A stretch of DNA of 63,999 bases, filler included, from Jimgerdemannia flammicorona (GCA_003990765.1; 3 parts of 3 records of this genome joined end to end with filler, not necessarily neighbours in it), one strand, 5' to 3'; positions 38 through 55,674 are shown, numbered from the whole stretch's first letter. The notes: generated from the sequence alone by a model not told the origin. Numbers and translations are program-made.

Positions 38-749
38 TCCCTTGGACTGCCCTTTATTATTGATGTCTATAATTCTAATAATACAATGTCACCCCCAACC
101 TCAACCAATGCCCCATGGACCCAACCCTCCCCTCTTGACCTCTCTCTGCCCAAGCACTACCCAATTACCCACTACCTGAATCCTTCCACTACTCTTCTGG
201 AAGATATACTATACCAAACCCCTGCAGTTCCCCCTACCCAGCCCCCAACCTCACCATCAGCTATTCAAAATATCCAATAGCAACTATTCCCAATATACCA
301 CCTTGTCCCTAATCCCAACCTGCTGCCTCTCCTCAAAGACATGAACCCAATGCCCAGCTAACCCAACCTACATGGCCAAAGCCCAACTAAGTATAAGAGG
401 GTTGCTTTTTAGAGTAACCATTACATAGTTCTGGATGGGTTTTCTGGAAGTTCTGGATATTCTGGAAGACTGTTTTCTTATGGTCAAGATCAATTTTGTA
501 TGGAGTACGTCCTCTATACTTATTGATTTCAAGATCGGGTTGACATCTCAACCAAAGTCCTTTTTTTTGGACTAGTTCTGGATGTTCAGGATTTTTTGTA
601 TTTCAGGAAGTTCAAGAAACTAAGACCCGCTTAGTTGAACTGGCATATCACTGCAGACAATACCCAATTAGGAAATTTCATGACAGAGTTAGGAATGAGA
701 CCTAACAGGGAGCAGATTTACTTAAGAGTAGTTTGTGGGTTATTAAATA

Positions 750-1000
750 AGTTTATTTGCTATTCATGATATTGCTATACTAGGAGTAGTTGTGTAAAGG
801 GATATTGTGGGGAAGTATTCAGAAATGTTCGAGTCTGAGATTTTGAGGTCTGGGAGAGTGGGTATTTATATATACTAGTGAGGGGCTATCTGGACTATGC
901 TGAATATGGATGTAGCACTAAGTGTTTTGCTGAGTCGGAATGCAGTCACGTAGTACAAGTGTGATCTGACATGTCAAAAGATCATCTGACTGCTGAGTCA
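750..1000 (-). promoter_or_regulatory. Putative element promoter (TATAAATA) and poly(A) signal (AATAAA) of the family A LTR
   Basis: Minus-strand TATAAATA near 863-870, AATAAA near 752-757, TGAGTCA at 994-1000; repeated in the other LTRs; positions fit a U3/R/U5 layout. Confidence 0.5.
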
Positions 1001-1063
1001 GTTCACAGTCACATCATACAATACTAATCTAAGTATACTATGACTGCTAGACTATTCATGGGT

Positions 1064-2170
1064 TTAGGTGCTATCTGGGTAGTCCTCAATGACATCACCA
1101 TTGATTGCATCATCTCTGATGAAGTAGTCATCTAGGAAAAGTGGTTCGTGGATTACTTCTCCTTGTTCGCTGAGATAGTAATACATTGGGACTTTGTCTC
1201 CATCCCACAGAATAGCATCATCTGTCTCATAGGCTGGATAAGGTATTGGTGGATGAAGGATGGGTATATTGTCTTCACTTTCATTGGATTCACTGTCTAC
1301 ATACCTTCTATAGGTTACAGCACTATGAGTTACAGAATTATAGTAAGCTGGCAGCTGTGGTTTATGTTACTCGTACTCAGGTAGTGGAGTGGTTGGTTCG
1401 ATCTCGAGAGTTGTCTAGAGGTACAGGTTGTGTTCTCTGGTCTCTTCATTGTAGTTGAAGTAATCGGGGGTGAAGGCGGATTGGTATTCATACCAGTGGT
1501 CATTGTCCCAATAAGTCTCATATGTAGTTATGAACTGTTGTAAGTTCATCAGCAAGGTTGGCAGAGTGATCAGGGTTGGCAGAGATCCTTGGCTAGAGGT
1601 CATATCAGCATCAGAGGGATCATTGTCTTCTGCTTCGTCTTCATTGAAGTGGATTATATCATAGATGTCCTTCATGGCATATCCAACTTGAGGCATTTGC
1701 AGGATATGATCATTGGGGTGTGGGAAGGTTTTATCTGTGGTTTCGACATACTTGAGATACTCAAAATACTTGTGGTTAAGTTCTTGTATCATGTTGTCAA
1801 TTTGGCCATAGGACAGAGTAGTAACTATTTCGCTGGTGGTAACTTGGAGGCAGGGAATAATAGTACTATACTTGTAGAAGAGTTCTCGATGTTTGCAGGT
1901 AATGAGCTTCTGGTGTTGAGACATCTCGGTAATGTCTGTATCATGGTGGTGTTCGACCATGTCTTCCAGAAGGTGGCCGATCTGGTAGTAGCTTGAGATT
2001 TGTCCGATTCAGTGGGCCTCGCTAAGCATGTTCAGAGCATTCCAATGGACTTCCACGAAGTAGAGGGGTGTTAGGCTATGGATATTCATGAGGGGTAGAG
2101 GGAGTGTGGCTTGGTTGACAATGGCATTCCAAATGTCAGCACAGATATGGTTGTAGATCTCGGTGGTCAT
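1064..2170 (-). pseudogene. LTR(U3)-encoded ~368-aa accessory protein of family A, copy 1 (unknown function)
   Basis: Hand translation from ATG 2170 (MTTEIYNHICADIW...) to TAA 1064 (...IEDYPDST*): 1107 nt in one frame with three internal stops (TGA, TAG, TAA); includes track ORF 1415..1960. Confidence 0.85.
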
Positions 2171-2240
2171 GTTTGTGTGTTTGGAAGTTTGTAGTTGTTA
2201 TTTGTTTTGGTTCTCTAATTCAATGCGTCTCAGTGCTTGG

Positions 2241-2346
2241 TATATATGCATTTGGTCCTGATTGGTAAGATTCTGTTTGTGTAATTCTTGTGTTCTGTGA
2301 CTTCATATTGACTCAGCTTTGTGCACTGTGACTTCGGTTTGACTCA
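2241..2346 (-). promoter_or_regulatory. Putative promoter of the LTR-encoded ORF: two TGACTCA (AP-1/Gcn4-type) sites, CCAAT box, TATATA
   Basis: TGACTCA at 2309-2315 and 2340-2346; CCAAT (attgg 2261-2265); TATATA near 2241-2247, about 70 nt upstream of the ATG; present in all three LTR copies. Confidence 0.55.
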
Positions 2347-2427
2347 GCTTCGTAATTAAGCAGGTAATTTCCAGATTTGTTTGGAGGTCATGTAAGATTT
2401 CAGTGGTTTGGAGGTTGTGTGCTTACA

Positions 2428-2440
2428 ACTCTCCCCTTCT
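2428..2440 (-). other. Polypurine tract of A1
   Basis: Minus-strand AGAAGGGGAGAGT abuts the TGTAAG of the 3' LTR; identical at 17241-17253. Confidence 0.9.
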
Positions 2441-5400
2441 TAGCTTTTGACATCCTCATCGGGGCCTTCTAATTTTATTCTAGTATTGTTACACCATTTG
2501 GGAGGTCAAAAGTCTGGTAAGGTCCATTTTCTCAGAAAGTGGCATGCTCATAGTACAGTTGCCTAATGCATTGGATTTACATGTTAAAGGGTTGTATGTT
2601 CAATGCCGTGTACTGGAAGTGATTCTGACATTATTCACTGCTGGAGAATTTCTTCCAAGGAATCTTCTTAAATGTCTATGCCTTGTTTCCCACCAGTGGT
2701 ACAGGGAGAATAGGCTTGCTTTCAGTTTTGCTATTTTTTTAGGGGTTCGGTATTCTTGTCTTGTTTTGCTGAGTTCTTGGTTGTGATAATTATAATATTC
2801 AGAAGAATAATATATGGGTAGGTGCAGAGTTTTTTGGTTCTAATTGTTCAAGGAATCATATTCCTGAACTAGATCAGTAGCATTCTGGAGATTGGTCTTG
2901 GGCTCCCAGGTTGCATCATGGATCAGATAACCTTTCCATTTGACAAGGTACTCAGGGTGGCTCTTGTTGCCATGTTTGTTGAGGATGTGTTCAACTTCAT
3001 ACTCTTCTTGGTCATTAATAATGACAGGTACAGGTGGTTTGGTGATCCAGTTTGGAAATAGTTCATCATCATTCTCATTGTATCACTTGAGATGTTGAAT
3101 ATTAAAGACTGGGTGAATCTTAATGGTATCTGGTAGTGCCAATTTGTAAGAGGTTGGAGAAACTTATGCAATGACTTCAAATGGTCCAATAAACTTGCTG
3201 TTCAGTTTTGTCGATAGTCTGTGCTTGAGGTTGTCAACTCGGTATCCTCTGATGTCTAGTAGAACCTTTTCTCCAATATCAAAGGTTTCTTCTTGGCGGT
3301 GTTGGTTAACATACTGTGACTGTTGTTCTTGCACTCGTGATAAATTCTCAATAGCAATCTGGCTTAGATTGTGCATTTGGAGTAGGAATTCTTCAACAGC
3401 TTCAACTGTGGAGAGTTCTTCAGTAGTTCAGATGAGTGTCAAAGGGGTGTTTGGGTTTTGTCCAGTGTTGGCAAAGAATGGGGTCATTCCAAGAGAGGCT
3501 TGCTTGCTATTGTTATAGGTGAACTCGACTGTGGTGAGGTGTTCATGCCAGTCATCTTGTCTGTAGGAAACATAGTTCCTTAGCATTTGTTCCAGAGTTC
3601 AGTTCATTCTCTTAGTTTGGCCATCGGTTTCTGGGTGAAAGGCTGTGGATAGTATAAGTTTTGTTCCAAGGTGTGCATGGAGGGCTTTCCAAAAGTGGCT
3701 GGTAAATTTCGGATCTCGATCGCTAATGATGATCTTTGGAAGACCATGGTAGTGGAAGATATTGTCAAACAAAAGTGTGGCTATGTCTGGTGCTGTTGCG
3801 GTAGTGGCAGTAGATACAAAGTGGGCTTGTTTGCTAAGATAGTCTACAAAGACAACAATTATATCTTTCCCATTCTTGGTTCAGGGTAGTTGTACAATAA
3901 AGTCCATAGAGATTTGTTCCCAATTTGCAGATGGTACTGGGATAGGGTAGAGTAGACCAGGTTTTGCTAGTATTGAGGACTTGTTTCATTGGTAGGCATC
4001 ACAGGAAGTGATGTAGGTTTTGAGCTGATCTGCTATGTGGGGCCAATAGAAGTTTCGGGAGATAACTTTATAACATTTATCAAATCCTAAATGTCCAGCT
4101 ATAGGGGCATCATGACATTTGAATAGAATAGTCCTTCGGAGGTCTTGGTTGTTTGGGACATATAGTCTGTCTTTGTGTAGATAGCATTGTCCTTGAGTTG
4201 GTATTGATTGTACCAGTTATGTTTGTCAGCATCATCACTGTTCAAGATTTCACAGAGTGCTTGAGCTTCTTTATCATCAGCACATGCTGTGATAATTTGT
4301 TCCATGATAGAGTTTGTAACTAAGGTGAGAGTTTGGATAACCTCTTCGATTGGTGGTCTTGAGATTGCATCAGCAACAATATTTTCCTTGCCAGGATGGT
4401 ACTGGATTTCATAGTCAAAGTTGGTGAGGACTTTTATCTATCTGGCTTGCTTTCGAGAAAGGGTAGCCTGAGTCTTGATATTGACTAATGACTTGTGGTC
4501 AGTCAATACAGTAAAGTGTGCTCCTTCTAGATATGGTTGCCATTTGATCAGAGTGTCTACGATGGCTAGCATCTCCTTCTTATGAGTTGCATAGTTGATT
4601 TTGGCATCATTGAACTTGCGGGAGTGATAGGCCACTAGGTATCCTTCTTGCATGAGTACTGCTCCAAGGGCTAGATCAGAGGCATCAGTGGTAACTTCAT
4701 ATGGTAGGGCAGAATTTGCTGCTTAGAGTACTGGAGTGGTTATCAGGGCATCTTTCAGTGCTTGAAAGGTGGTATCTTGCTTGGGTCCCCAAGTTACAAG
4801 ATTGTTGAAGTCTTTCTCTTGTTTCATGGTCCAGGGTTGTTCTTGTTTCTTACTATGCTTGGTCATTTGGGTAAGGGCAGTAGTGATCTTAGCAAAGTTG
4901 GTAACAAATCGCCTATAATAGTTTGCTAATCCCAGGAATGACTGGAGGTCTTTCAGCTTCTTGGGTCTGGGCCAATCCTTGATTGCAGAGATTTTGCTGG
5001 AGTCTACTTTGATTCTATTTGGAGTGACAATGTGTCTAAGGAATTGAATTTCTTTCAGGAGAAATTCGCACTTGCTGAGTTTTGCAAAGAGTCGGTTTTC
5101 TCGGAGTTTCAGTAGTACTAGTTCAAGGTGTTCAAGATGTTCCTCCAGGGTTTTGCTGAAGACTAGGATGTCATTGATGTAGACAATAATGAATTTATCC
5201 AGGTATGGATGCAGAATGGTATTCATCAGTATCTGGAAGGTTGCTGGAGCATTGGTTAAGCCAAAGGGCATAACAAGGAACTCAAAGTGTCCATAGCAAG
5301 TTCGGAAGGCTGTCTTGTAGATGTCTTCTTCTTTCATGGCAATTTGCCAGTAACCATTTTGCAGGTCAAAGGAGCTTATGAATTGTGGGTTGGTAAGTCT

Positions 5401-6504
5401 ATCGAATATTTCATCGATTCTTGATAGTGGGCAACAGTTCTTAATGATCTATTTATTGAGATCGCGGTAGTCAATGCACATTCGCAGGTCTCCTCCTTTC
5501 TTGACAACAAATAGGACTGGTGTACCATAAGGTGATACACTGGGTCTGATGAATCCTTATTCTAAGAGTTCATCAATTTCCTTCTTGAGTGCATCAATTT
5601 CTCTTGGAGACATGTGGTAGATTGACTTGAAGGCTGGTTTGGTATCTGGGATGGTCTTGATAGCATGGTCTACTGCTTGTTTGGGAGGTAGGCCTTTTGG
5701 GAGCTTCTTTGGGAATATGTCTCGAAATTTCTGGAGTAATGGTCTGACACGACTGTCAACTTTGGAAAAATCTTCTTCAGAGTTCTCAGGTTCTCCTTTG
5801 GATGGGCGGATGGAGATGGCGAAGAGAGGGCATTTCTTGGTCAATTTCTTGAGTTGTAGCTTATTGATGTAAGTGATTTTTGGTCCAGGGTCACTAGAGT
5901 GAAGTGGGTCTTTTTCACCTTGTAGTTTGAAGTTGTGGCATCCTTTCTTGATGGTCAGAGAATGGTTTACCCAATCGATCATAGGGTTCTCTTATTTTAA
6001 CCATGGGGTCCCAAGGATGATTTCATTGTCAGGAAGTGGAACAATTTGGAGGATAACATGTACTCGGTAGTTGCCAATTCGGAGGGGTAGATTGCAGACT
6101 TCTTTGCTAATAATATGTGAGGTCTCATTGGCTGTAGCAACTGCTTGAGTTTGCTGTACTGGAGAGGTAAAGACCTTGAGTCTGTTGGCTGTCTCTTCAT
6201 TGATGAAGTTGCCTGAGGCACCACTGTCTATCATAATCTTGACAGGTGCTCGATTGACAAAAGCCTTAAGTGTGAGCAGTTTGTCTGATCCAATGGTGGT
6301 GATTTCGGTTGTAGGAGCCTTCCTTCTGTTGGTTCTTCTTTGAGCCAGTTCATTGACATAAGAGAAGAAATCATCAATCATTCGAGAAGAGTACATTCCA
6401 ATGCCATGGAGACATCGGCCACTTGGTACATATCCATCTTCGATTTTTTTGTAGAATTGTTCTTCTTTGTTCATGGTAGGTTAGGCTGGGGCCTTGTTGG
6501 ATGA

Positions 6505-6905
6505 GCCAAATCCTTTGGATCCTTGGATGGTAGGCAGTAATTCAGGGACTTCCTTGACTATCAGGGTTGACTTGATTTTTTCAAATAGGATCTGGGCGAT
6601 GCAGAAACCTATGGGAATCTTAAACAGTGTCTAACTATGGTTTCGGATGAGAACAATAATTTTGCCTGTGTAATCCTCATCAATGACTCCTCCTTCTACT
6701 GAGAGTCCTTTCAATGCTAGGCTGCTGCAACAGCATATTCTTCCAACATGTCCTTCAGGGATTTGGATACTAATTCCTGTGTAGATTTGTTTGACTTCTC
6801 AGTTGGAAACTATAGCTTCTTCAGCTGCATACAGGTCATATCCAGCTGCTTTTTGACTTCCTTTAGTTGGGGCCTTAGCCATTTGTCTTAACTTGACAAA
6901 GTCTA
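6505..6905 (-). pseudogene. dUTPase domain of A1, between the zinc knuckle and the protease
   Basis: KAPTKGSQKAAGYDLYAAE...TGISIQIPEGHVGRI...SSLALKGLSVEGGVIDEDYTGKI...IAQILF...GSKGFGSS covers the five trimeric dUTPase motifs. Confidence 0.93.
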
Positions 6906-8918
6906 GTGTTCTGGTGGTCAGATTGTTGAGGTGATACAGAGTGGTAACAGTTGCTCTTGTTGCTGTTCGAGGTTTTTGGTTAGGGCAGGCACTGGCCATG
7001 TGTCCTGTCTTCTAGCAATAGAAGCATGCTCCGCTTCTCTGAAGTTCATTCCTTTCACCTTCAGTAAGTTTCTTGAAGGTACTTGGTTGGGTGGGTTCAT
7101 GATTTCTAGGTGTCCAAGAGGTGGATGTGGAGGGAGCTCGGGATGCTTCATGCTTGGGTTCTTCTTTCTTGGTCCAAGTCTTTTCCTTGTTATTGAATTG
7201 TCTTTGGGGCAGAATTGGTCCAGCTGTTAGGATTCGCTTGACCATAGTCTTGATTCTTACCAGACATCATTGTTGGTGGTCACAACCAACTGGGTGGCCT
7301 TGTTCTCGGATTTTTCTAGTAAGCCATTCAGGCAGGGCATCAAATAGATGGTCTGCTCTTGTACTATTTTGTGCTTCATTGTTGGCAATATATCCTAGGC
7401 CAACAGTGTTCAGGAGTAATTCGAGTTTTGTATAGAAGGTTTCGAATTCTTCTTTGCCATGTACATCAAATTTGAGGCTGTGGAGTTTTACTTGAGATTT
7501 GGCAATTATGGTTTCGCTGCAGTATTGAGCAATCATGAGTTGTTTGAGTCCAGGGGCTGTAGGTTGGGCTCCATATCCTGGGGTATTGTTTGCTGCATTC
7601 TGAGCAACTACTGCAGATTGGATATCCCATGTGAGGGGTTTTTCAGGAAGGGTTTGCCACCATTCTTCAGCAGGTCCTCAGAAGAATGTAACAACTTGGT
7701 AGATATAGGCTGTAGTGGTAGCAAAGAGTTGTTCCAGAGTGTGGTCTTGATTGTTGGTTAGAATGTGATCAGCAACTTGCTCATTGGTCCATTGATTGGC
7801 TTCAAAGTTGGTGTCAATTACACTAATGAAGCTTTGGACTTCTTGTGCAGTACCATTGAAGGTAGGTAGACTCAGATTTTTTGTAGGTCAGGTCTGTTCA
7901 GCTAAGGCAGTAATGGTTGCTGCCATTATAGCTACTTGGGCTGTGAGATCAAGAATCTGTTGGTTTGCCATGTTGTTCACTGGAGGTGGTTGGACTGCTG
8001 GTAGTGGTGTTACTGGTACTACTTGAGGTACTGGTGCAGAGTGTGATGGGGTTCTTTGGGTCTGTATAAGTTGCTGGAGTAGTAGTTGTGGATCTGGAGT
8101 AAAGACTTGATAGATAGCTGTTTGTTGTTATGTAGGTGTATTCTGTCCTGATGGGAGTGCGTCTCCTTCTGTGGTGTATCTGGGATCGAATTCAGTGAGA
8201 TACTCCTCCTCTTCTTCGGTTTGGTCCCCCTGTAATTGGGTTTGCTCGGCGTCAAAGTAGACAGAATCGGTTGTATATCTGATTTCGGATGGACTTAATT
8301 CAAAGTCAAGTTCAGGTTTGGTATTGGTTTCAGATTCAGGTAGGGCTGTAGCAGGGCCTGCTTCAGGTTCAGGGTCAGGTAGTTGATGAAGGGTTTCTCT
8401 TGCTTCTTCTTTAAGAATATAGTGGGCCTTGCTGTTCTAAAATCAGTAGTATAATGTGGTCTTGGTCCTGGTATGGTGAAAGTCGGTAGAGTTGAGCCAC
8501 TTGGCTACAGAGGCTTGGGCTTTATAAGGAACTAAGGCTAGAAAGGCTGCTGCTGGTTGTCCTAGGTCGCTCGGATTTGTAGAGCTGACAAAACTCTTGT
8601 TGAGAAGAGTAAAGAAGGCTTCAATAAGACCTTCTTCATCTTGACTTGCTGGATGTAGTGCAAGGAGTTCAGTGAATAGGGTTTTGCCTATTTGCTGGTT
8701 TAACTGGAGTATTTTCTTCTTTGAATGAAGTTTATCCCACTTGTTGCAGGTGTGGAGGTCAAATTGTCCTTGTACATTAGGTTCAATTCTCTCCAGATTG
8801 TCAGATGGTTCAGGATAAATTCCAGTTCAGAGGTTGGGCTTTATACCAACTTGTAGGAATTCTCAGAAGGGTTTATAGCAGGGTGAGGAAGCATCTTGAA
8901 GCGAAATTGGATTGTAAA

Positions 8919-8930
8919 CTGCTGCTACCA
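8919..8930 (-). other. Primer binding site of A1 (TGGTAGCAGCAG; initiator-Met-like, tRNA not verified)
   Basis: Starts with TGG 3 nt inside the 5' LTR boundary; TGGTAGC resembles iMet-type PBSs. Confidence 0.75.
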
Positions 8931-8933
8931 AGT

Positions 8934-10960
8934 TGTAAGAGGGTTGCTTTTTAGGGTAACCGTTACGTAGTTCTGGATGGGTTTTCTGGAAGTTCTGGAT
9001 ATTCTGGAAGACCGTTTTCTTATGGTCAAGATCAATTTTATATGGAGTACATCCTCTATGCTTATTGATTTCAAGATCGGGTTGATGTCTCAACCAAAGT
9101 TCTTTTTTTTGGACTAGTTCTGGATGTTCAGGATTTTCTGTATTTCAGGAAGTTCAAGAAACTAAGACTAGCTTAGTTGAACTGGCATATTGCTGCAGAC
9201 AATACCCAATTAGGAAATTTCATGACAGGGTTAGGAATGGGACCTAACAGGGAGCAGATTTACTTAAGAGTAGTTTGTGGGTTATTAAATAGGTTTATTT
9301 GCTATTCGTGATATTGCTATACTAGGAGTAGTTGTGTAAAGGGATATTGTGGGGAAGTATTCAGGAATGTTCAAGTCTGAGATTCTGAGGTCTGGAAGAG
9401 TGGGTATTTATACTAGTGAGGAGCTATCTAGACTATGCTGAATATGGATATAGTACTAAGTGCTTTGCTGAGTTAGAATACAGTCACGTAGTATAAGTGT
9501 GATCTGATATGTCAAAAGATTGTCTGACTGCTGAGTCAGTTCACAGTCATGTTATACAATGCTAATCTAAGTATATTATGACTACTAGGCTATTTATGGG
9601 TTTAGATACTGTCTGGGTAGTCCTTGATGACATCACCATCAATTGCATTATCTCTGATGAAGTAGTTGTCTAGGAAAAGTGGTTCATGGATTACTTCTCC
9701 TTGTTCGCTGAGATAGTAATATATTGGGACTTTGTCTCCATCCCACAGGATAGCATCATCTGTCTCATAGGCTAGATAAGGTGTTGGTGGATGAAGGATG
9801 GGTGTATCATCTTTGCTTTCATTGGATTCACTGTCTGCGTACCTTCTATAGGTTACAGCACTATAAGTTGCAGGATTGTAGTAAGCTGGCGGCTGTGGTT
9901 CATGTTGCTTGTACTCAGGTGGTGGAGTGGTTGGTTCGATCTCAAGAGTTGTCTGGAGGTACAGGTTGTGTTCTCCGGTCTCTTCATTGTAGTTGAAGTA
10001 ATCGGGGGTGAAGGCGGGTTGGTATTCATGCCAGTGATCATTGTCCCAATAAGTCTCATATGTAGTTATGAACTATTGTAAGTTCATCAGCAAGGTTGGC
10101 ATAGTGATCAGGGTTGGCAGAGATCCTTGGCTAGAGGTCATGTCAGCATCAGAGGGATTGTTGTCTTCTACTTCGTCTTCATCGAAGTGGATTATATCAT
10201 AGATATCCTTTATGGCATATCCAACTTGAGGCATTTGCAGGATATGATCGTTGGGGTGTGGGAAGGTTCTGTCTGTGGTTTCGATGTACTCAAGGTACTT
10301 GTGGTTAAGTTCTTGTATCATGTTGTTAATTTGGTCATAGGACAGAGTAGCAACCATTTCGCTGGTGGTAACTCGGAGGCAGGGAATAATGGTACTGTAC
10401 TCATAGAAGAGTTCTCGATGTTTGCGGGTGATGAGCTTCTGGTGTTGAGACATCTCGGTAATGTCTGTATCATGGTGGTGTTCGACCATGTCTTCCAGAA
10501 GGTGGCTGATCTGATAGTAGCTTGAGATTTGTCTGATTTAGTGGACCTTGCTAAGCATGTTCAGAGCATTCCAATAGGCTTCTATGAAGTAGAGGGGTGC
10601 TAGGCTATAGATATTCATGAGGGGTAGAGGGGGTGTGGCTCGGTTGACAATGGCATTCCAAATGTCAGTGCAGATATGGTTGTAGATCTCAGTGGTCATA
10701 TTTGTATATTTGGAAGTTTATGGTTGTTATTTGTTTTAGTTCTCTGATTCAATGCATCTCGGTGCTTGGTACATATATATGCATTTGGTCCTGATTGGTA
10801 AGATTCCGTTTGTGTAATTCTTGTGTTCTGTGACTTCGTATTGACTCAGCTTTGTACACTGTGACTTCGGTTTGACTCAGCTTTGTGATCAAGCAGGTGA
10901 TTTCCAGATTTGTTCGGAGGTCATGTGAGATTTCAGTGGTTTGGAGGTTGTGTGCTTACA
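8934..10960 (-). repeat. 5' LTR of A1 (2027 bp)
   Basis: TGTAAG...CTTACA termini; followed on the minus strand by ACT and PBS TGGTAGCAGC. Confidence 0.96.
9602..10699 (-). pseudogene. LTR(U3)-encoded accessory protein, copy 2
   Basis: Same start and stop as copy 1; 1098 nt; includes track ORF 10073..10489; retains PPPEY and PPAY. Confidence 0.85.
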
Positions 10961-13900
10961 CTAAGGGTCAGTCATTTGTCCCCAACCCCACCCACTAGTC
11001 ACCGGCGGAGCTCTCCCCATCTCCCCTCTTCCTCTCCCTCCAAGGCACTCAGTCCTACCCAGTCCATAATATATCTCCAAAACTCCTCCAACACCTTGCA
11101 CTTGCCAAGCCAATGTTCAGGTGTTTATACTACTCCTCCCTCCTGACCAATGCCGAAACACTCCTTGCACTCGAATACTCCACCATCCACTAAGTACCCA
11201 GACTGATAGTTCAACATCATATTCTGCCATAGGATACACCACCACACTACCCAGAACTTGGGGGGCAGCCACTGCCTCACCCTTTTGCTCTAAAGCCAGA
11301 GTCCATTCCAATTCTACTCCTTGCCAATTCCAACCCTCTGTCAGGCTTTGGGCCACAGGTCTCCACTCAGGCCCCGCAGATACTCCAGACTCTCGCTAAG
11401 CTGAAAGTTCTCCACCAGAACACCACCTAGTAGAAGCCTGTCCCACTACCACATCTGCAGTCTCTAATCCTCCTCAGCTTCATCACCTTGTCACTGAAGT
11501 CCAATTTTCTTAGTGCTATCTACCACCCTCCACTAGAAGTCTGTAAACTGCATCCTCCTGCTCTCATCCATGGCCACCATCACAAGCAGGTCACCTGAGT
11601 CACCATGTAGAGAGTACCAAACCTCCCACAACCTCTGCATGAGTGGCACCCACTCCTGACCCTGAAGCTCACTCACCCTTCGCAACCACCAAGCTCTCAA
11701 ACATTGAAGCCACTTAGTAAAGTCCACTAAGCCCAGCCCACTCCTTTCCAAGAGCAGTGTGAGTACCTCCCAACCCACCTGGCTTTGCCACCCTCCCCAG
11801 ATCTATGATCTCGCCATCTTCAATAGCCCCTTGACTACCCAGGTTGGGAAATCCAAATGATATCCTACATACCACAGCTTTGGCATCTAATATATATTTA
11901 GCACCATCACCCTTCTGGTTAGAGATATATACTGACCTCTCCATCGCAGCAGAACATTTCCCCACTCCAGAAGTTTTCAGTCCCACTATGCCCAGAGAAG
12001 AAGAGATCTGAACACCGAGAAGTAGATCCCCAAATAATGCACTGGTTTGTTAGCCAGTACCACTGTCCCAATGACATCGCCACCAACAATTCCAGCACCC
12101 AGCACCAGAGTCTCGCATTTGTGCCAGTTTAGTTTAGCACCAGAACTACTCTCATACCATTCCACAGACCTCTGTAACTCCCCCACATCCACCAAGGAGC
12201 CCAGCCCAACCACCATATTATCAGCAAAGGCCCCCATCTTCCAATTAATCTCTAAAATGTCCAAACCCCCAATCAGGTACTGAATTCTGTCCAGTAGAGG
12301 CTCCAAGGAGAGGGTATACAATATGGGTGACAAGGGGTCCCCTTGTGGTGCCCCACATCCTAGGGGAAAGGTCACTCCCCTGTGGTTATTGATGATCAAT
12401 CTGCCCGACTGTCCACCAAGAGGCTGATCAATGATCCTCAGAACCCTGGGGAAATATTAATCCATTTCAGTACTCCCTCCAGCCATATCCTCTACACTCT
12501 ATCATAAGCCTTCTCTTGATCCAGAAACACCAATCTGCCATTCACCCCTGTCATCCAGATATCTTCAATCACTCCATGTACCCAAGCTGTCCCATCTCGA
12601 ATCAACTGGCCACCAACAAACCCACACTGCTCCATACTAAGTACCTGCTGAGCAATTCCTTGCAGCCTCATCACTAAGATCTTTGTCACCAGTTTGTGGT
12701 CTATATTGAGAAGCATGATTGGCTGCCAGTTCTTCTAGTCTTCTCACCTCTCCTTATTCTTATAGAGCAAGGAGACTAGCCCTAAGCACTGTCTCCCAAT
12801 CCAAGCACCAGACTGAAGAACTCCATCACACATAGCAGTCATTTCCTCTAGCACCTCGCCCACCCCAGCTATCTTCTGCCAAAAATCCCAGGGAAGTCCA
12901 TCCTCTCTTAGAGCTATCCCTTTGCTCATCGAGGCCATAACCCTGCAAATTTCCTTGTTACTCACCAGGTCCCCCAATGCCCCAAGGCCCATCGCAGGGT
13001 TTGGGTGCCAATCCCCCAGCTGCCTTTCAATGTCCAGAGCATCCACTCCTCCTTCCTCCTCACTCCATAGATTCTTCCAACTGGTTCTCAATAGGCCTAG
13101 AATCACCAGAGTCCCCACCACCAGCTCACCATTCACATCCAGAACTCTCTCCCACTGCTGCTTTGTTCATTGTGCTTGTAACAACCATGACAAAAACCTA
13201 GTAGGCCTCTCTCTCTCCTCAAGCCCCTGCTACCATAGTTGGGCCACCATTCCCTGCAGCTTCACCTCCTCCTCTCTTCATAACACTCCTTTAAGCTCCT
13301 CTACCTCCTGCCGGATTCTCACAATATACCAATCAGTCACCTCCCCATCTTCCAGTATACCTGCCTATCTCTCCATGAGTGCTGCCAGATGCCATGAGGC
13401 CCACAGCACTTTCCACCTTCACTGGGTACACTTTCCTTTCTCTGCTTCTCTCTAATACCCCTGAGCATTTGCCTTCAGTCTCCTCCAGCAGTCTCCAATC
13501 CTAAGGCCTTGTTCCCACCACCTACCAATATTCCTAACCACCTCTGTTTCCCAACCCTCCCACAACATTTTATTCTTCAACAAGGAAGAATTTAGCCACC
13601 AATGTTTAGGTCTATCCTTACTTCCCCCAAACCTCTCCCCTCCAAGCAGCCCCCAGTGATCAGACCATGGACACCAAACTACTTCTAGCATCAACCAGAC
13701 ATCTGCTCCCCAACACTCCGCTGTCAGAACCCAGTCAATCCTGGAGCCCAGCCCTGCTACCCAGTGGATGTATACCCACTGATCACTCCAAAAATGCCTT
13801 CTCGAGTCCACTAAAGAACTCAACCTCTCTGTCTCCAACCAGTTACCCAATCTACCACTTTTGCCCTGCATGCCTCTCCCTCCATCAGTTCTATCTATCT

Positions 13901-15208
13901 CCTTATTCTGTACCATGTTGAAGTCACCCCCCATACAGTCCAGCCCAACCTCTCCCAATACACCAGCCTCTTTCAACCTGTGAATCCAATCCACCCTCTC
14001 CCCTCTCTCAGCTGGGCAGTAATAAGACCCAACTGTCAACGAGCCCCATCCAGGCCTCTTCCATATTCCCCACACCACTCAAGACCCCTAATGTCCAATG
14101 TCCTCAATGTCCCCTATCTCTTTCCAAATGAGAATACATACTTTTTCCCTCCATACTGCCACACTCCCCCATTCCTTAGTCCAATCCTGTAAGTCCACAT
14201 CTGTCTCATAATGAATATCCTGTAATAAGAAGAGGTCCGCATCCAGTCCTTTAAGTCATCCAAATATATACTTCCTCCTAGCCACCCCCCATAACCCATT
14301 AATATTCAAAGAGAATATCCTGGTTGTACTGTTCATATTGAAAGAATGTTGCAATAGAGACCCCAGCCTAGAATTCCATGCTCATCTCATCCCCAGCCAG
14401 ATCCAAGCACCATTCAGCTTCTAAGTCACCCTCTGCATTAGCCTGAGCATCCAGTGCCTTCAAGATTTCCTGACATTCCACCCCATCCACTACCTCCATC
14501 TCCAACTGATAGTCCAAGCAGACTGCATGCCACTTCTCCAGTCCCTTCCTTGAGTTCCACAAGAATAGTGCCCTGTCACTTGCAATCCTCCTAAGTTTCT
14601 CCTCTCTCTGATCGTTGACTTGATATTCAACTGACTCTAGAGAACAGCCAGGATCTTATTTCTCATCTTCCTCACACCTCCTCCCCCTATAGGATCTCCT
14701 CCCAATGCCTCTCTTCCATCACCCTGAAATCCTCACCCCCCAGCTCTTCAGTTGCTATCCCTTCCAGAGTCTTCCACATCCACTTCTCCTCATCCACTGT
14801 CTCTGCCACACTCTGAGCGATTTGTCCCCCATCTACCTCAGGGTCCACCAGTATGCTCCTCCTTACTGACTCATCCCACTCCTCATCTGGCACATCCAGC
14901 AGCTCCTCCTCTCCCTCAGCTCCACCCAGGACACTATACTGGGGGCATACACCTTTACTCATATCCACATCTGCCTCCATATTGTCTTCCCTCTCCTCCT
15001 CCACTCCCAGCTGAGCCCTACTCCAGGCCCTTTCACCCCCCTTAGCTCAGGCACTCTCCTGCAATCCCACAACCCCCTCCTCTGAGCTTCCACTGGCTCT
15101 ACCTCCACTCAATCTTACCAGCAGCTCCTTCTAGATTTTCCTCTCCTGCATCTTCTCCCAGGCCCTCTTCTCCATCCAGACCCTCTTCCCATCCACCTCC
15201 CCCACCAC

Positions 15209-18200
15209 TGTAAGAGGGTTACTTTTTAGGGTGACTGTTACGTAGTTCTGGAAGGGTTTTCTGGATATTCTAGATGTTCTGGAAGACTGTTTTCTTATGG
15301 TCAAGATCAATTTCGTATGGAGTACATCCTCTACACTTATTGATTTCAAGATTGGGTTGACGTCTCAACCAAAGTCCTTTTTTGGACTAGTTCTGGATAT
15401 TCAGAATTTTCTGTATTTCAGGAAGTTCAAGAAACTAAGACCAGCTTAGTTGAATTGGCATATCGCTGCAGACAATACCCAATTAGGAAATTTCGTGACG
15501 GGGTTAGGAGTGGGACCTAACAGGGAGCGGATTTACTTAAGAGTGGTTTGTGGGTTATAGAATAGGTTTATTTGCTATTCATAATATTGCTATACTAGGA
15601 GTAGTTGTGTGAAGGGATATTGTGGGGAAGTGCTCAGGAGTTGTATTCGGATTGTTCAAGTCTGAGATTCTGAGGTCTGGGAGAGGGGGTATTTATACTA
15701 GTGAGGGGCTATCTGGACTATGCTGAATATAGATGTAGCACTAAGTACCTTGCTGAGTCGGAATGCAGTCACATAGTATAAGTGTGATCTGACATGTCAA
15801 GAGATCATCTGACTGCTGAGTCAGTTCACAGTCATGTCATACAAGGCTAATCTAACTATACTATGACTGCTAGGCTATTTATGGGTTTAGGTGCTGTCTG
15901 GGTAGTCTTCGATGACATCACCATCGATTGCATCATCTCTGATGAAGTAGTCATCTAGGAAGAGTGGTTCGCGGATTACTTCTCCTTGTTGGTTGAGGTA
16001 GTAATACATTGGGACTTCATCTCTATCCCATAGGATAGCATCGTCTGTCTCGTAGGCTGGATAAGGTGTTGGTGGGCGGAGAATGGGTGTGTTGTCTTTA
16101 CTTTTATCAGATTCACTGTCTGTATACCTTCTATAAGTTACAGTACTATGAGTTGTGGGGTTATAGTATGCTGGCAGCTGTTGTTCATGTTGCTCGTACT
16201 CAGGTGGTGGAGTGGTTGGTTCGATCTCGAGGGTTGTCTGAAGGTACAGGTTGTGTTCTCTGGTCTCTTCATTATAATTGAAGTAATCGGGGGTAAATGT
16301 GGGTTGGTATTTGTGCTAGTGGTCATTGTCCCAATAAGTCTCGTATGCAGTTATGAACTATTGTAAGTTCATCGGCAAGGTTGGCAGAGTGATCAGGGTT
16401 GGCAGAGATCCTTGGCTTGAGGTCATATCGGCATCAGAGGGATTATTGTCTTCTGCTTCATCTTCGTCAAAGTGGATTATATCATAGACGTCCTTTATGG
16501 CATATCCGACTTAAGGAATTTGTAGGATATGGTCATCAGGGTGCGGGAAGGTTCTATTTGTGGTTTCAACATACTCGAGGTACTTGTGATTGAGTTCTTG
16601 TATCATGTCATCGATTTGGCTGTAGGATAGGGTAGTAACCATTTCACTGGTAGTGACTCAGAGGCGGGAAATAAAGGTGTTGTACTCATAGAAGAGTTCT
16701 CGATGTTTGCGGGCGATGAGCTTCTGGTGTTGAGACATCTGGGTAATGTCTGTATCGTGGTGGTGTTCAACCATGTCTTCTAAGAGATGGCCAATCTGGT
16801 AGTAGCTTGATATTTGTCCAATCTAGTGGGCCTCATTAAGCATGTTCAGGACATTCCATCGGGCTTCCACGAAGTAGAGGGATGCTAGGCTATGGATATT
16901 CATGAGGGGCAGAGGGAGTATAGCTTGGTTGACAATGGCATTCCAAATGTCAGCACGGATATGGTTATAGATCTCAGTGGTCATGTTTGTATGTTTGGAA
17001 GTTGTAGTTGTTGTTTGTTTTGGTTTTCTGATTCAACGCATCTTGGTGCTCGGTATATATGCATTTGGTCCTGATTGGTAAGGTTCCGTTTGTGTAGATC
17101 TTGTGTTCTGTGACTTCGTATTGACTCAGCTTTGTACACTGTGACTTCGGTTTGACTCAGCTTCGTGATCAAGCAGGTGATTTCCAGATTTGTTCAGAGA
17201 TTGCGTGTAATTTCAGTGGCTTGGAGGTTGTGTGCTTACAACTCTCCCCTTCTTAGCTTTCGACATCCTCATCGGGGCCTTCTAATTTGTTCTATTGTTG
17301 TTACACCATTTGGAAGGTCAAAAGTCTGGTAAGGTCCATTTTCTCAGAAAGTAGCATACTCATAGTACAGTTGCCTAACACGTTGAATTCACACATTAAA
17401 GAGTCATGTGTTCAATGCCATATGCCGGAAGTGATTCTGACATCATTTACTGCTGGAGAATTTCCTCTAAGGAATCTTCTTAAATGTCTATGCCTTGTTT
17501 CCCACCAGTGGTACAGGGAGAATAGGCTTGCTTTCAGTTTTGCTATTTTTCCAGGAGTTCAGTATTCTTGTCTTGTTTTGCTGAGTTCTTGACTTGGTTC
17601 ATGATAGTTATAATGTTCAGGAGAGTAATATGTAGTATATATGGATAGGTACAGAGTATTTGGTTCTAGTTGTTCAAGGAATCATATTCCTGAACTAGAT
17701 CAGTAGCATTCTGGAGATTGGTCTTGGGTTCCCAGGTTGTATCGTGAATCGGGTAACCTTTCCATTTGACAAGGTACTCAGGAAGGTTCTTGTTACCATG
17801 TTTGTTGAGGATTTGTTCAACTTCGTATTCTTCTTGGTCATTAATGATGACAGGTATAGGTGGTTTGGTGGTTTGGTTTGGAAATAGCTTGTCATCATTG
17901 TCATTGTATCACTTGAGACGTTAAACATTAAAGACTGGGTGAATCTTAATGGTGTCTGGTAGCGCCAGTTTGTAGGAGGTTGGAGAGACTCATGTAATGA
18001 CTTCAAATGGTCCAATAAACTTGCTGTTCAGCTTTGTAGATGGTCTGTGCTTGAGGTTGTCAACTTGGTATTCTCTGATATCTAGTAGAACTTTTTCTCC
18101 AATGTCAAAGGTTTCTTCTCAGTGGTGTTGGTTAACATACTGTGACTGTTGTTCTTGAGCTTATGATAAATTCTCAATTGCGATCTGGCTTAGATTGCAC

Positions 18201-21200
18201 ATTTGGAGTAGGAATTCTTCAACAGCTTCGACTGTGGAGGGTTCATCAATAGTTCAGATAAGTGTCAAAGGGGTGTTTGGGTTTTGTCCAGTATTAGCGA
18301 AGAATGGGGTCATTCCAAGAGAGGCTTGCTTGCTATTGTTATAGACAAACTCGACTGCAGTGAGATGTTCATACCAATTATCTTATCTGTAGGAGACATA
18401 GTTCCTTAGCATTTGTTTCAGAGTTCAGCTCATTCTTTCGGTTTGGCCATCAGTTTCAGAGTGAAAGGCTGTAGATAGTGCAAGTTTTGTTCCAAGGTAC
18501 ACATGGAGGGCTTTCCAAAAGTGGCTGGTGAATTTTGGATCTCGGTCACTAACAATGATCCTAGGAAGACTATGATAGCGGAAGATGTTGTCAAACAAGA
18601 GTGTGGCTATGTCTGGTGCTGTTGCAGTAGTGGTAGTAGGCACAAAGTGGGCTTGTTTGCTGAGATAGTCCATAAAGACAACAATTGCATCTTTCCCATT
18701 CTTGGTTTGGAGTAGTTATACAATAAAGTCTATAGAGATTTGTTCCCAATTTGCGGATGGTACTGGAATAGGGTGAAGTAAGCTGGGTTTTGCTAGTGTT
18801 GAGGACTTGTTTCGTTGGCAGGCATCACAGGAAGTGATGTAGGTTTTGAGCTGATCTGCCATGTGGGGCCAATAGAAGTTTCGGGAGATAACTTCGTAAC
18901 ATTTATCAAATCCTAAATGTCCAGCTGTAGGGGCATCATGACATTCGAATAGGATAGTCCTTCGGAGGTCTCAGTTGTTTGGGACATACAATCTGTCCTT
19001 GTAGTAGATAGCATTGTCCTTGAGTTGGTATTAATTGTATCAAGTATGCTTGTTATCATCATCATTGTTCAGGATTTCTCGGAGTGCTTGAGCTTCTTTG
19101 TCATCAACACATGCTGTGATGATTTGTTCCATGATAGTGTTGGTAACCAAGGTCAGAGTTTGGATAACCTCTTCGATTGGTGGTCTGGAGATTGCATCGG
19201 CAACAATATTTTCCTTACCAGGGTGGTACTGGATTTTATAGTCAAAGTTGGTGAGAACTTTCATCCATCTAGCTTGCTTTCAGGAAAGGGTAGCCTGTGT
19301 CTTGATGTTGACTAATGACTTGTGGTCAGTCAATACAGTGAAGTGTGCTCCTTCTAGATATGGTCGCCATTTGATCAGAGTGTCTACAATGGCTAGCATT
19401 TCCTTCTCATGAGTTGCATAGTTGATTTCGGCATCATTGAACTTGCGGGAGTGATAGGCCACAGGGTGTCCTTCTTGCATGAGCACTGCTCCAAGAGCTA
19501 GGTCAAAGGCATTGGTAGTGACTTCATATGGTAGGGTGGGATTTGCCGCTTGAAGTACTGGTGTGGTTATCAGGGCATCTTTCAGTGCTTGAAAGGTGGT
19601 ATCTTGCTCGTGTCCCCAATTTACAAGATTGTTGAAGTCCTTCTCTTGTTTCATGGTCCAGGGTTGTTCTTGTTTCTTATTGTGCTTGGTCATTTGGGTG
19701 AGGGCAGTAGCGATTTTAGCAAAGTTGGCAACAAATCGCCTGTAATAGTTTGCTAATCTCAGGAATGACTGGAGGTCTTTCAGCTTCTTGGGTGTCGGCC
19801 AATCTTTGATTGCAGAGATTTTGCTGGGGTCCACTTTGATTCCATTTGGAGTGACAATGTATCCAAGGAATTGAATTTCTTTCAGGAGAAATTTGCACTT
19901 GCTGAGTTTTGCAAAGAGTCGGTTTTCTTGGAGTTTCAGTAGTACTAGTTCAAGGTATTCAAGATGTTCCTCCAGGGTTTTGCTGAAGACTAGGATGTCA
20001 TCAATATAGACAATAACGAATTTGTCTAGGTATGGGTGCAGAATGGTATTCATCAGTGTCTGGAAGGTTGCTAGAGCATTAGTTAAGCCAAAGGGCATAA
20101 CCAGAAACTCAAAGTGTCCATAGTGAGTTCGGAAAGCTGTCTTGTAGATGTCTTCTTCTTTCATGGCAATTTGCCAGTAACCATTTCGCAGGTCAAAAGA
20201 GCTCATGAATTGTGGGTTGGTAAGTCTATCAAATATTTCATCAATCCTCAGTAGTGGGCAACAGTTCTTGATGGTCTGTTCATTGAGATCGTGGTAGTCA
20301 ATGCACATTTGCAGGTCTCCTCCTTTCTTGACAACAAAGAGGACTGGCACACCATAGGGTGATATGCTGGGTCTGATGAATCCTTGTTCTAGGAGTTCAT
20401 CGATTTCCTTCTTGAGTGCATCAATTTCTCTCGGAGACATGTGGTAGATTGACTTGAAGGCTGGTTTGGCATCTGGGATAGTCTTGATGGCATAATCTAC
20501 TGTTTGTTTGGGCAGTAGGCCTTTCGGGAGCTTCTTTGAGAATATGTCTCGGAATTTCTGGAGTAGTGGTCTGACACGGCTGTCAACTTTAGAAAAATCT
20601 TCTTCAGAGTTCTCAGGTTCTCCTTTGGATGGGCGGATGGAGATGGCGAAGAGAGGGCATTTCTTGGCCAATTTCTTGAGTTGTAGCTTGTTGATGTGAG
20701 TGATCTTTGGTCCAGGGTCGCTAGAATTGAGTGGGTCCTTTTCGCCTTGTAGTTTGAAGTTGTGGCGTCCTTTCTTGATGGTCAGAGAATGGTTTACCCA
20801 ATTAATCATGGGGTTCTCTTGTTTTAACCATGGAGTCCCAAGGATGATTTCATTGTCAGGAAGTGGTACGATTTGGAGGGTAACATGTACTCGGTAGTCA
20901 CCAATTCGGAAGGGTAGATTGCGGACTTCTTTGCTAATAACATGTGAGGTTCTATCAGCTGTAGCAACTGCTTGAGTTTGCTGTACTGGGGAGGTGAAGA
21001 CCTTGAGTCTGTTGGCAGTCTCTTCATTAATGAAGTTGCCTGAGGCACCACTGTCTATCATAATCTTGACAGGTGCTCCGTTGACAAAAGCCTTAAGGGT
21101 GAGCAGTTTGTCTGATCCAATGGTGGTGATTTCAGTTGTAGGAGCCTTTCTTCTGTTGGTTCTTCTTTGAGCCAGTTCGTTGACACAAGAGAAGCAATTA

Positions 21201-21351
21201 TCGATCATTCGGGAAGAGTACATTCCAATACCATGAGGGCATTGGCCACTTGGTACATATCCATCTTCTATCTTCTTGTAGAATTGTTCTTCTTTGCTCA
21301 CAGTAGGTTGGGTTGGGGCCTTGTTTGATGAGCCAAATCCTTTGGATCCTC
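15209..21351 (-). mobile_element. Family A chromovirus copy A2 (3' LTR 15209-17240 plus pol; 5' part lost in the gap)
   Basis: LTR starts TGTAAG at 15209 inside LINE ORF1; PPT; chromodomain, integrase, RH, RT (YIDD) and protease (IDSGAS), including the 673-aa ORF 19280..21301; dUTPase C-terminus at the gap edge. Confidence 0.95.
15887..16984 (-). pseudogene. LTR(U3)-encoded accessory protein, copy 3
   Basis: Same start and stop; 1098 nt; no net frameshift; several internal stops. Confidence 0.8.
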
Positions 21352-21451
21352 NNNNNNNNNNNNNNNNNNNNNNNNNNNNNNNNNNNNNNNNNNNNTTAAT
21401 TAATTAANNNNNNNNNNNNNNNNNNNNNNNNNNNNNNNNNNNNNNNNNNNN
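21352..21451. other. Scaffold gap: 44 N + TTAATTAATTAA + 44 N (assembly spacer)
   Basis: The same 100-nt construct recurs at 42802-42901; TTAATTAATTAA places stops in all six frames. Confidence 0.97.
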
Positions 21452-42801: not shown

Positions 42802-42901
42802 NNNNNNNNNNNNNNNNNNNNNNNNNNNNNNNNNNNNNNNNNNNNTTAATTAATTAANNNNNNNNNNNNNNNNNNNNNNNNNNNNNNNNNNNNNNNNNNN
42901 N
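42802..42901. other. Scaffold gap with TTAATTAATTAA spacer
   Basis: Same construct as 21352-21451. Confidence 0.97.
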
Positions 42902-46200: not shown

Positions 46201-47264
46201 TTCTTAGGTTTTATTTATAAATTAAATAGCTGAGATTTTAGATGAAATTGATTTAATATAGATGCTTATATATAATAATTATGTAGAGCTTCTCATATAT
46301 ATATTATATACTATTATAATATATATATATTACAAGCTTCATTTGTAAGTTAAAAAAGATAAAAATAATCTTCTATAATATCTAGTAATTATTTATAGTA
46401 TCATATTTTTGAATTTATACTTACAGTTTTTTATATTTTACCAAACTACATTTATTAAGATTTATTATATAGAATACTCAAATAGTATAATCTTTCTTAT
46501 TAAAGACTAAAATGAACCTCTTGATCATATTTATAATAATAACTAAAACTATGTTTTTTATATCTATATCTATAGTTATACTTATAGTTATAATGGAAAC
46601 TACTTTTATTATTGCTAAAATGCTTGCAATTAATATATCTATATTATTAAACTGATCTTAGCTTATATTTATACTATGATCTATTATAGAGTTTATAGTA
46701 TATATATATTGTAATATATATTTTAGAGGTATATTGCTATAGTTATTACTACTTAGTACTAGTAGAGCTTATAATCTTTATTATATAATACTTCTTTAAA
46801 ATATGAGAAGAGGTAATTTTATTAATTAAATATTGTGATATATAGTATAAAATAGAAATAAAAATCAAAAGAATAGATATTTGATCATAGTATCTAAATC
46901 CAATTTTCTAATTTATTATAGTATAGAAATTATCTTTACTGTAGATATATACTATATCTAAAATATTATCAGTAAAACTCTTGTTACTTTCATAAATTTC
47001 AGATAGGATTTTACATGAGATTCTATCTGAGATACAGATGGAATTCTGCTAGGAATTTTATATGAAAAGACTTAATACTTAACCACATATTTAGTAGTAG
47101 AATTAGTACATAAATTTGTATAAATAACTCAGTATTTTAGAGTGAATAAAGCTCAGTAGAGTCAGTTTAGCTCAGTTAAAAAAGTCTTCTTTATATACTC
47201 TTCTCTTCAACATTCAGGTGATATAAGACTCAGACAACACTTTTTACTACATTTTCAGTGTCCA

Positions 47265-49192: not shown

Positions 49193-49223
49193 GTTGGGGT
49201 CTCTATTGCAACATTTCTTCAAT

Positions 49224-52200: not shown

Positions 52201-52920
52201 ATCTGTGGCCTGAAGTCTGGCAGAGGGTTGGAATTGGTGAGGAGTGGGATTGGAATGGACTCTGGCTTTGGAGCAAACAGGTGTGGCAGTGGCTGCCCCC
52301 CAAGTTCTGGGTGGTGTGGTGGCAGGTCCTACAGCGGAATGTGATGTTGAACTATTGGTCTGGATACTTGGTGAATGGTGGAGTTTTCGAGTACAAGGAT
52401 TGTTTCAATATTGGTCAGGAGGGAGAATTGATACAAATGCCTGAACATTGGCTTGGTGAATGTGAGGTTTTGGAGAAGTTTTGGAGATGTATTATGGACC
52501 AGGTAGGGCTGGGTGCCTTGGAGGGAGAGGGTGGGAGAAGATGGGGAGAGATTTGCTGGCAACTGGTGGGTAGGGTTGGAGATGAATGGCTGACCCTTGG
52601 TTGGGCTTTGGCTATATAGGTTGGGTTGGCTGGGCATTGGGTTCATGTCTTTGAGAAAGGACATTGGGTCAGGGTTGGTGACAAGGTGGCCCATTGGGAG
52701 TAGTTGCTGTTGGACATTTTGAATAGCTGGTAGCAAGGTTGGGAGATGGGTGGGGGGAACCGCAGGAGTCTGGTGCAGTGTATCTCTCAGAAGAGTGGTG
52801 GGAGGATTTGGGTAGTGGGTAATTGGGTGGTACTCAGGTAGGGGGAGGTTGAGGGGGGGGGGTTGGGCCCCCGGGGCATTAGTTGAGGGTGGGAGTGACA
52901 TTGTATTGTTAATACTATAG
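49224..52920 (+). pseudogene. LINE ORF2 (APE endonuclease, RT, C-terminal Cys/His motif)
   Basis: MNSTTRIFSLNVNGL...DLFLLQDVH, GGNFN, WSDH, PIMLLDMDHKLV, LDQEKAYDRV, PQGDPLSP, FADN, YYLGIY, GGLGLVD, EHWLGEC; many stops. Confidence 0.92.
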
Positions 52921-52950
52921 ACTTCGGTAATAAAGGACAGTCTAAGAGAC

Positions 52951-52984
<34 letters not shown>

Positions 52985-55130: not shown

Positions 55131-55674
55131 ATATTATAAATATGTCCATTATAACGTAATGGATGCTTACTCTTGAAAGTATGTCAGATTTCTGTATCTT
55201 GAAAACTTGACCATTCTGACTCTCGCAGAGTCTCTTGAAGTTGTAGGGGAGGGTGGGTGAGTTTGAAGTGTATCTGCCTGCAGGCTTACTAGTCCTTTGC
55301 TATCTCTTTGCTTTGAACTATTTTGATCTGAGGTTTATTCACTCAAAGATACTGGGTTATTTATACAAGTTTGCTAGCTATGAGAGGATAGCTGAGTAAT
55401 AAATGAGTCATTTGGACTTTGTCAAAACATTTGAACAATGTCTAAATACTATACTAAATCGGGATATTTGATTTGGATAATGTCTAAAAGTTTAGACAAT
55501 GTCTAAGAATTTAGACAATGTCAAAATCGAGGACTGCTAACTATAAGGCTATACTACTTTGAGACTGAGTACGATCAAGTGTCTATTCTCTATTTCCTTC
55601 TTCCAAATTTGGCTGTACCATCACAACTTCCTCCTGAATAGATGGTCTCATCCCTGAGGCATCTATTTAAACTC

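Follow-up and report, generated by a model that had tools for sequence, protein, structure and literature searches.

The window, i.e. the whole stretch of 63,999 nucleotides that was analysed, contains three direct minus-strand repeats of approximately 2.03 kb, alignable from end to end with 88-92 % identity. Two of them bound element A, a heavily decayed Ty3/Gypsy chromovirus (392-10960, minus strand; delimited by the LTR pair, the borders and Pfam matches): LTR1 (392-2427) is its 3' long terminal repeat and LTR2 (8934-10960) its 5' repeat, both placed by alignment and from the sequence. The third repeat, LTR3 (15209-17240, placed by alignment), is the 3' LTR of element B, whose interior (17241-21351, minus strand) meets a gap of Ns at 21352. 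LTR1 and LTR2 share 92.3 % identity, and LTR3 is 88.1 % identical to each of them. The LTRs start with TGTAAGC and end with CTCTTACA, the TG...CA termini being retained in LTR2 and LTR3 and the terminal CA of LTR1 having decayed to TA. The polypurine tract AAGAAGGGGAGAG (2429-2441, minus strand) stands directly upstream of LTR1, and the same tract precedes LTR3. Three nucleotides after LTR2 lies TGGTAGCAGCAG (8919-8930, minus strand), a putative primer-binding site from its presumed tRNA match; its letters are also present in the loose ends of metagenome contigs. A 5-bp target-site duplication, CTTAG, was read directly on both sides of element A (387-391 at its 3' side, with the partner at 10961-10965). 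Because of the TG/CA ends, the polypurine tract, the primer-binding-site-like sequence and the duplication, LTR2, the interior and LTR1 are regarded as one complete element, carrying the LTR ends, priming sites and short target-site duplication that are hallmarks of chromoviruses. Elements A and B are both nested in one copy of a repeat of about 4.6 kb (31-391 plus 10961-15208), the inverted paralogue of which (48351-52956) provides an uninterrupted ('empty') site for the insertion of element A.

The order within element A, on the minus strand, is 5' LTR, gag, a dUTPase-like segment, protease (PR), reverse transcriptase (RT), RNase H (RH), integrase (INT), chromodomain and 3' LTR. Pfam matches to Integrase_H2C2, rve and Chromo were found in that order on the minus strand in both elements (Chromo E 3e-16 and 7e-17), the chromodomain of element A forming the C-terminal end of the integrase (2843-3082, minus strand; PF00385, E 3.3e-16), and a 707-aa frame of element B matched PR, RVT_1 and RNase H. 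An earlier reading of this DNA made without database searches (here the sequence-only reading) had called the element a Gypsy chromovirus, and the pol order PR-RT-RH-INT with a C-terminal chromodomain agrees with this. The nearest Pol clusters in the Atlas were from Basidiomycota, followed with nearly equal scores by Chordata, Streptophyta and Mucoromycota. The dUTPase-like segment of element A is a weak domain start (6802-7011, minus strand; E 0.0012, below the cut-off) right after the gag zinc knuckle.

A second, unrelated Gypsy element is bounded by 478-bp LTRs at 55149-55625 and 61397-61874 and has a dUTPase domain after the protease (58921-60192, minus strand, E 3.9e-13). Gypsy elements bearing dUTPase occur in fungi. 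Four runs of 44 Ns (21352-21395, 21408-21451, 42802-42845 and 42858-42901) form two pairs, with 12 bases between the members of a pair; they represent gaps in the assembly or else stretches that were masked, and the first pair cuts the interior of element B. The window begins with a run of 33 T (1-33). Open frames of 443 aa (47160-48491, plus strand), 212 aa (12817-13455, plus strand) and 208 aa (13452-14078, minus strand) had no Pfam match; they belong to the repeat, richer in GC, into which elements A and B are inserted. No tRNA genes or Rfam families were found in the window.

Each of the three LTRs contains the same ATG-to-TAA frame, with lengths of 1107, 1098 and 1098 nt, as the sequence-only reading had noticed. 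That reading gave no strand; the frame lies on the minus strand, in sense to gag-pol. The ATG, 257 nt into the LTR, has an A at -3 and an in-frame stop 10-17 codons upstream, and the TAA stands 672 nt before the LTR end. Copy 1 (1064-2170, minus strand, in LTR1) has 368 codons plus stop and nonsense codons at 54 (2009-2011), 252 (1415-1417) and 268 (1367-1369). Copies 2 (9602-10699) and 3 (15887-16984), both on the minus strand, have 365 codons plus stop, with nonsense codons at 54 and 209 in copy 2 and at 54, 109, 158, 209 and 223 in copy 3. With 3, 2 and 5 internal stops and no frameshifts, the copies are pseudogenes. The earlier description of the gene as complete has therefore to be given up, as there are 2-5 nonsense codons in every window copy: all three copies are dead, and no complete gene is present in the window. 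The stop at codon 54 had been recognised correctly (TGA, TAA and TAG in the three copies), and the damage was understated, since every copy has further stops.

Alignment of the three LTRs gave a single indel of 9 nt within the frame and indels of 4, 1, 4, 12 and 2 nt in the flanking LTR parts, in line with the pattern that had been reported from reading the sequence. The placement of the gene inside an LTR also stands, as the polypurine tract abuts the TG, the primer-binding-site-like sequence lies near the CA and a 5-bp target duplication is present. Since these features enclose the LTR, the gene is within the terminal repeat of a mobile unit, and since the polypurine tract precedes the gene, it belongs to the LTR itself and is duplicated with it.

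The frame lies between two groups of putative promoter motifs, all on the minus strand. Upstream of the ATG there are two TGAGTCA sites (2309-2315 and 2340-2346), a candidate enhancer in a tandem repeat of about 31 nt kept in the three LTRs, a CCAAT motif (2261-2265) and, approximately 70 nt before the ATG, the TATA-like motif CATATATA (2241-2248). This is the cluster of two TGACTCA sites, CCAAT and TATA to which attention had been drawn, and it is kept in all three LTRs. The putative downstream block consists of a TGACTCA site (994-1000) and the TATAAATA box (863-874; TATAAATA at 863-870), the presumed promoter of the genomic RNA, which is likewise kept in all three LTRs. The box lies 194 nt beyond the stop codon, so that the gene indeed ends upstream of the second TATA, as had been stated. 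Approximately 105 nt further downstream follows the only AATAAA of the LTR (752-757), presumed to be the polyadenylation signal. It is possible that the gene has a promoter of its own in the upstream block, at somewhat below even odds from these motifs. The upstream block was also considered as a duplicate of the downstream block, which was rejected, as the local alignment score was 16 compared to a shuffle mean of 18.6 and only short motifs are shared. TGASTCA was not significantly enriched over the whole window (19 found compared to 13.9 expected; 13 of 100 shuffles reach 19). A TGAGTCA site is also present in the short LTRs of the dUTPase-bearing element (55404-55410 and 61653-61659), and the LTR promoters of this host may commonly contain such sites.

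We tentatively assign the gene to U3 because TATAAATA and the single AATAAA are downstream of it. A real gene could instead lie in a very long R region or 5' leader, if the upstream TATA-like block were the genomic promoter and the frame the first cistron at both ends of the RNA. The upstream block does have the fuller set of motifs (two TGAGTCA, CCAAT and the TATA-like motif, kept in three LTRs), and with AATAAA downstream of both TATA boxes either start is compatible with the replication scheme. Such an R would, however, be about 1.5 kb long, and gag would be placed behind a 366-codon ORF with many AUGs, whereas a conserved consensus TATAAATA placed about 105 nt before AATAAA corresponds to the customary arrangement of U3 and R. 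From these arguments of layout we consider the long R improbable, and U3 is retained as the presumed place of the gene.

Both LTRs were identical when element A inserted, and the differences between LTR1 and LTR2 are thus post-insertion decay; those between elements A and B combine such decay with the divergence of active lineages. Omega was calculated according to Nei-Gojobori, with the two shifted frames of the same stretch as controls. Between LTR1 and LTR2 the differences at the three codon positions were 33/17/31, and omega was 0.44 in the true frame and 0.46 and 0.82 in the control frames. Between the elements differences accumulated at third positions, 41/20/74 for LTR1 and LTR3 and 44/19/83 for LTR2 and LTR3, with omega values of 0.16 (controls 0.86 and 1.18) and 0.15 (controls 0.85 and 1.30), respectively. 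On the A-B branch 63 of 100 changes were at third codon positions; 61 were synonymous and 38 non-synonymous, compared to means of 33.3 and 66.3 when the observed base changes were re-placed randomly on sites with the same base, and none of the 5000 simulation runs reached 61. The changes specific to LTR1 (9 synonymous and 24 non-synonymous; simulated 11.7 and 23.2) and to LTR2 (19 and 27; simulated 14.1 and 31.7) fit neutrality. In terms of nucleotides the ORF shows no better conservation than its surroundings, divergence between the elements being 0.123-0.133 in the ORF compared to 0.083-0.110 in the LTR flanks.

The synonymous excess between the elements together with the neutral changes within element A indicates selection while the family was active and release after insertion. 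The protein was thus under purifying selection during family activity and decayed neutrally after insertion, a result obtained from three copies in two elements of one window. The suggestion of past selection for coding was well founded, omega between the elements being approximately 0.15 compared to 0.85-1.3 in the control frames. The A-B values of 0.15-0.16, obtained by Nei-Gojobori on the three copies of the window, are well below the dN/dS of about 1 named as counting against a gene. The LTR frame is very probably a real, selected gene of the element.

Two relatives of the LTR protein were found outside the window, both of them short fragments from databases of protein calls. P0001, the one relative found in a word-indexed protein search, is a 247-aa sequence without a stop from a 998-bp contig; 154 of 253 residues (61 %; 79 % positives) are identical to the window copies over the C-terminal two thirds, and the end point is shared. 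P0002, from an exhaustive profile search of 1.84 billion representatives, covers 128 aa from Met1 without a stop and is 82-88 % identical. The openness of both is partly ascertainment, because protein databases contain called, mostly open frames. None of 2811 candidates for longer relatives (647-2000 aa) and none of 18 candidates for shorter ones (30-69 aa) scored, which argues weakly against fused and split forms, respectively. A 436-aa repeat protein, P0003 (E 3.5e-7 over 6 stretches), was rejected, as it matched 24 unrelated Pfam families and no single stretch passed. Scans of metagenome contigs, genome contigs and viral contigs gave no related locus.

LTR1 was further compared with contigs of four public runs from three studies, three of the runs being labelled soil metagenome and one organism A; the contigs may mix organisms. 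Thousands of short related contigs matched LTR1 in these four runs. The ORF accounts for 53 % of the stretch but for only 2 of the 12 indel places listed in the contigs (binomial 0.012), namely the 9-nt indel and a rare 1-nt deletion.

The base composition and third-position use of the LTR gene match those of the element's pol, and we therefore assume a long residence in the element instead of recent capture of a host gene. This bears on the possibility that the gene is a passenger in the LTR, transduced from the host or derived from some other mobile element, without a role for the retrotransposon. LTR retrotransposons are known to capture genes, as a rule in sense to gag-pol, according to the accessible part of the review PMC7264820; the protein also has no retroelement-like domain. 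The same part of that source, however, describes transduced genes as being usually in one or few copies, whereas this gene is in both elements and in thousands of short contigs from runs of three studies. Purifying selection on the inter-element branch and the composition shared with pol likewise speak against a passenger, and no cellular relative of the LTR protein was found among the 1.84 billion representatives or in the searches for near, longer and shorter proteins. We regard a passenger as quite improbable and continue with the reading of the frame as the element's own accessory gene.

The stop at codon 54 had been left open as either a decayed CGN codon or a real stop. In P0002 codon 54 is Arg, as are several sites with His, Cys, Gln or a stop in the window copies. 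At place 2011, the first base of the codon, the other letter, which is C on the gene strand, made up 403 of 678, 12.4 of 22.3, 36.9 of 41.9 and 12.2 of 12.2 of the depth in the four runs, in contigs that may come from more than one organism. A decayed CGN codon is thus borne out by the Arg in P0002 and the C in most of the related metagenome contigs, and for the same reasons a real stop at this codon fails. Each of the seven distinct stop positions of the window copies is occupied by Gln, Trp or Arg in one of the other copies or in a relative.

Within the ORF, 80 of the 81 differences between LTR1 and LTR2 are transitions, and polarisation shows most of them to be C>T and G>A, with CpA/TpG as the most frequent context. 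The observed/expected ratio of CpG is 0.34-0.51 in the LTRs and 0.20 over the whole window. The pattern fits cytosine deamination of silenced or methylated repeats, or a RIP-like process. After each insertion, almost pure C>T and G>A transitions produced the 2-5 stops per copy from Arg, Gln and Trp codons. A domestication of the gene by the host, with expression from solo LTRs to the host's own ends, is very improbable, since the three window copies are broken and the post-insertion changes fit neutrality; nothing direct speaks for it, apart from each LTR looking self-contained.

Over the stretch of the frame there are 3-6 stops in sense, terminal stop included, and 15-36 in four of the other five frames. 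The antisense -1 frame opposite the gene (1064-2170, plus strand) has only 6-9 stops, which we read as the usual by-product of a gene on the sense strand, without taking it for a further gene. Shuffles that preserved the composition (2000 in number) contained 17.7 stops on average and at least 7, and 0 of 2000 had 2 or fewer. That the open frame is itself a by-product of an A/C-rich, G-poor sense strand (16 % G) or of a constraint on RNA or DNA, as the rather open antisense -1 frame might suggest, is close to refuted by these shuffles, by the pile-up of substitutions at third positions in the true frame only and by P0001, which is open over 247 codons at 61 % identity and ends where the window copies end.

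The protein is predicted to be helical in its N-terminal part (approximately 140 residues). Its C-terminal part, of approximately 220 residues, is acidic, with a high content of Tyr, Pro, Asp and Glu, and the pI of P0001 is 4.05. The LTR protein shows no membrane-like segment (best 19-residue hydropathy 1.11). With five sequences no Pfam family was matched at E up to 1, and the best E in a sequence profile search of the PDB was 0.16. AlphaFold gave a pLDDT of 31.4 for the full length and, for the N-terminal 128 aa, a pLDDT of 51 with a pTM of 0.44; the ESM Atlas model of P0001 scores 0.39, and the Atlas contained no usable neighbour of the LTR protein. Foldseek with the low-confidence N-terminal model found nothing at E 0.001 or better, the matches being generic helical bundles (best E 0.79). 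The homology and structure searches thus produced two sequence relatives, and neither a Pfam or PDB match nor a confident fold.

Taken together, we consider the LTR frame to be a true accessory protein gene inside the 2.03-kb LTR, all three window copies of which are dead, with a probability of about 0.8. Judged by the layout, the gene would be placed in U3. At reverse transcription it would then pass from the 3' LTR to both LTRs, so that an element would hold two doses and each solo LTR one. Transcription would start from the gene's own upstream block (two TGAGTCA, CCAAT and the TATA-like motif) and be terminated by polyadenylation at the LTR's own signal, each LTR being a self-contained unit of about 1.4 kb. 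In the weakest step of this scheme, the protein would act in trans for the family, by regulating LTR transcription or by countering host silencing. Acidic, aromatic tails are of the kind seen in activation domains, and the guess was made because the C-terminal tail of this protein is acidic and aromatic in the same way. By such analogy the protein could conceivably regulate LTR transcription or antagonise host silencing, an assignment that we consider unlikely. The complete scheme is proposed with considerable doubt: the LTR would be a cassette made up of a promoter, the 366-codon gene and a poly(A) signal, doubled at each retrotransposition and kept in solo LTRs, and the orphan acidic protein would drive the promoters of the family or blunt silencing in trans.

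In LTR retrotransposons the LTRs count as control regions without coding function, and they are masked in annotation pipelines ahead of gene calling. Among the article texts searched, largely from open journals, no LTR-borne protein gene of an LTR retrotransposon was found, and the relevant matches for ORFs in LTRs all concerned MMTV sag. If the gene is as we propose, accessory genes in the terminal repeat (the 'complex' organisation) would not be confined to vertebrate retroviruses, Ty3/Gypsy LTRs could evolve into coding sequence and long LTRs elsewhere may hide genes. Since each solo LTR would retain one potentially expressible dose of the two carried by an element, recombinational loss of elements would not remove the factor. 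An orphan protein family would also be added, possibly one of regulators or counter-defence factors.

The closest parallel is sag in U3 of the LTR of MMTV (mouse mammary tumour virus), which is similarly a whole protein gene in sense inside the LTR and is present in both LTRs. The frame described here lies inside the LTR and in sense, and its putative place in U3 is read from the positions of TATAAATA and AATAAA. There is no sequence relation between the two (no Pfam match at E up to 1), and no relation in fold or sequence to Sag or another known retroviral accessory protein was found with Pfam, a PDB profile or Foldseek on the low-confidence model. Sag is a membrane glycoprotein, whereas the LTR protein has no membrane segment. 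Also the carriers differ, MMTV being a vertebrate retrovirus and the present element a chromodomain Ty3/Gypsy retrotransposon without env.

The tas/bel genes of foamy viruses are 3' accessory genes that reach into U3, have an internal promoter of their own and encode a product with an acidic C-terminus. If the upstream block is indeed a promoter, the LTR gene would resemble them in having one apart from the genomic promoter, as well as in its acidic C-terminus; no homology was detected, however, and the foamy-virus genes only overlap the LTR. Cassandra TRIM elements contain a 5S rRNA gene in each LTR, and by analogy they would share with the present element a gene with its own promoter in both LTRs. 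There the element is non-autonomous and the gene encodes a pol III RNA, whereas here it is a protein gene in an autonomous chromovirus.

Among LTR retrotransposons the comparison is with the additional ORFs (aORFs) of Athila and Bagy2 (env-like), Grande, RIRE2, Retand and PvRetro13 and the antisense ORFs of Botrytis Boty, which the accessible part of PMC7264820 assigns to the internal region and, for the most part, to the stretch from pol to the 3' LTR. Like the aORFs as described there, the LTR gene is an extra ORF with no assigned function and no relatives outside the element, is family-wide (3 of 3 window LTRs) and is conserved like the element's proteins (omega of about 0.15 between elements). 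In contrast to them, it lies beyond the polypurine tract and inside the repeat, and thus outside the internal region to which that part of the source assigns aORFs. The gene, seen in the window as pseudogenes only, brings together two known kinds, namely extra ORFs in LTR retrotransposons and retroviral genes borne in the LTR. If true, the cassette would be a retrotransposon counterpart, in what is probably a fungal soil organism, of the transactivator or superantigen strategy of retroviruses.
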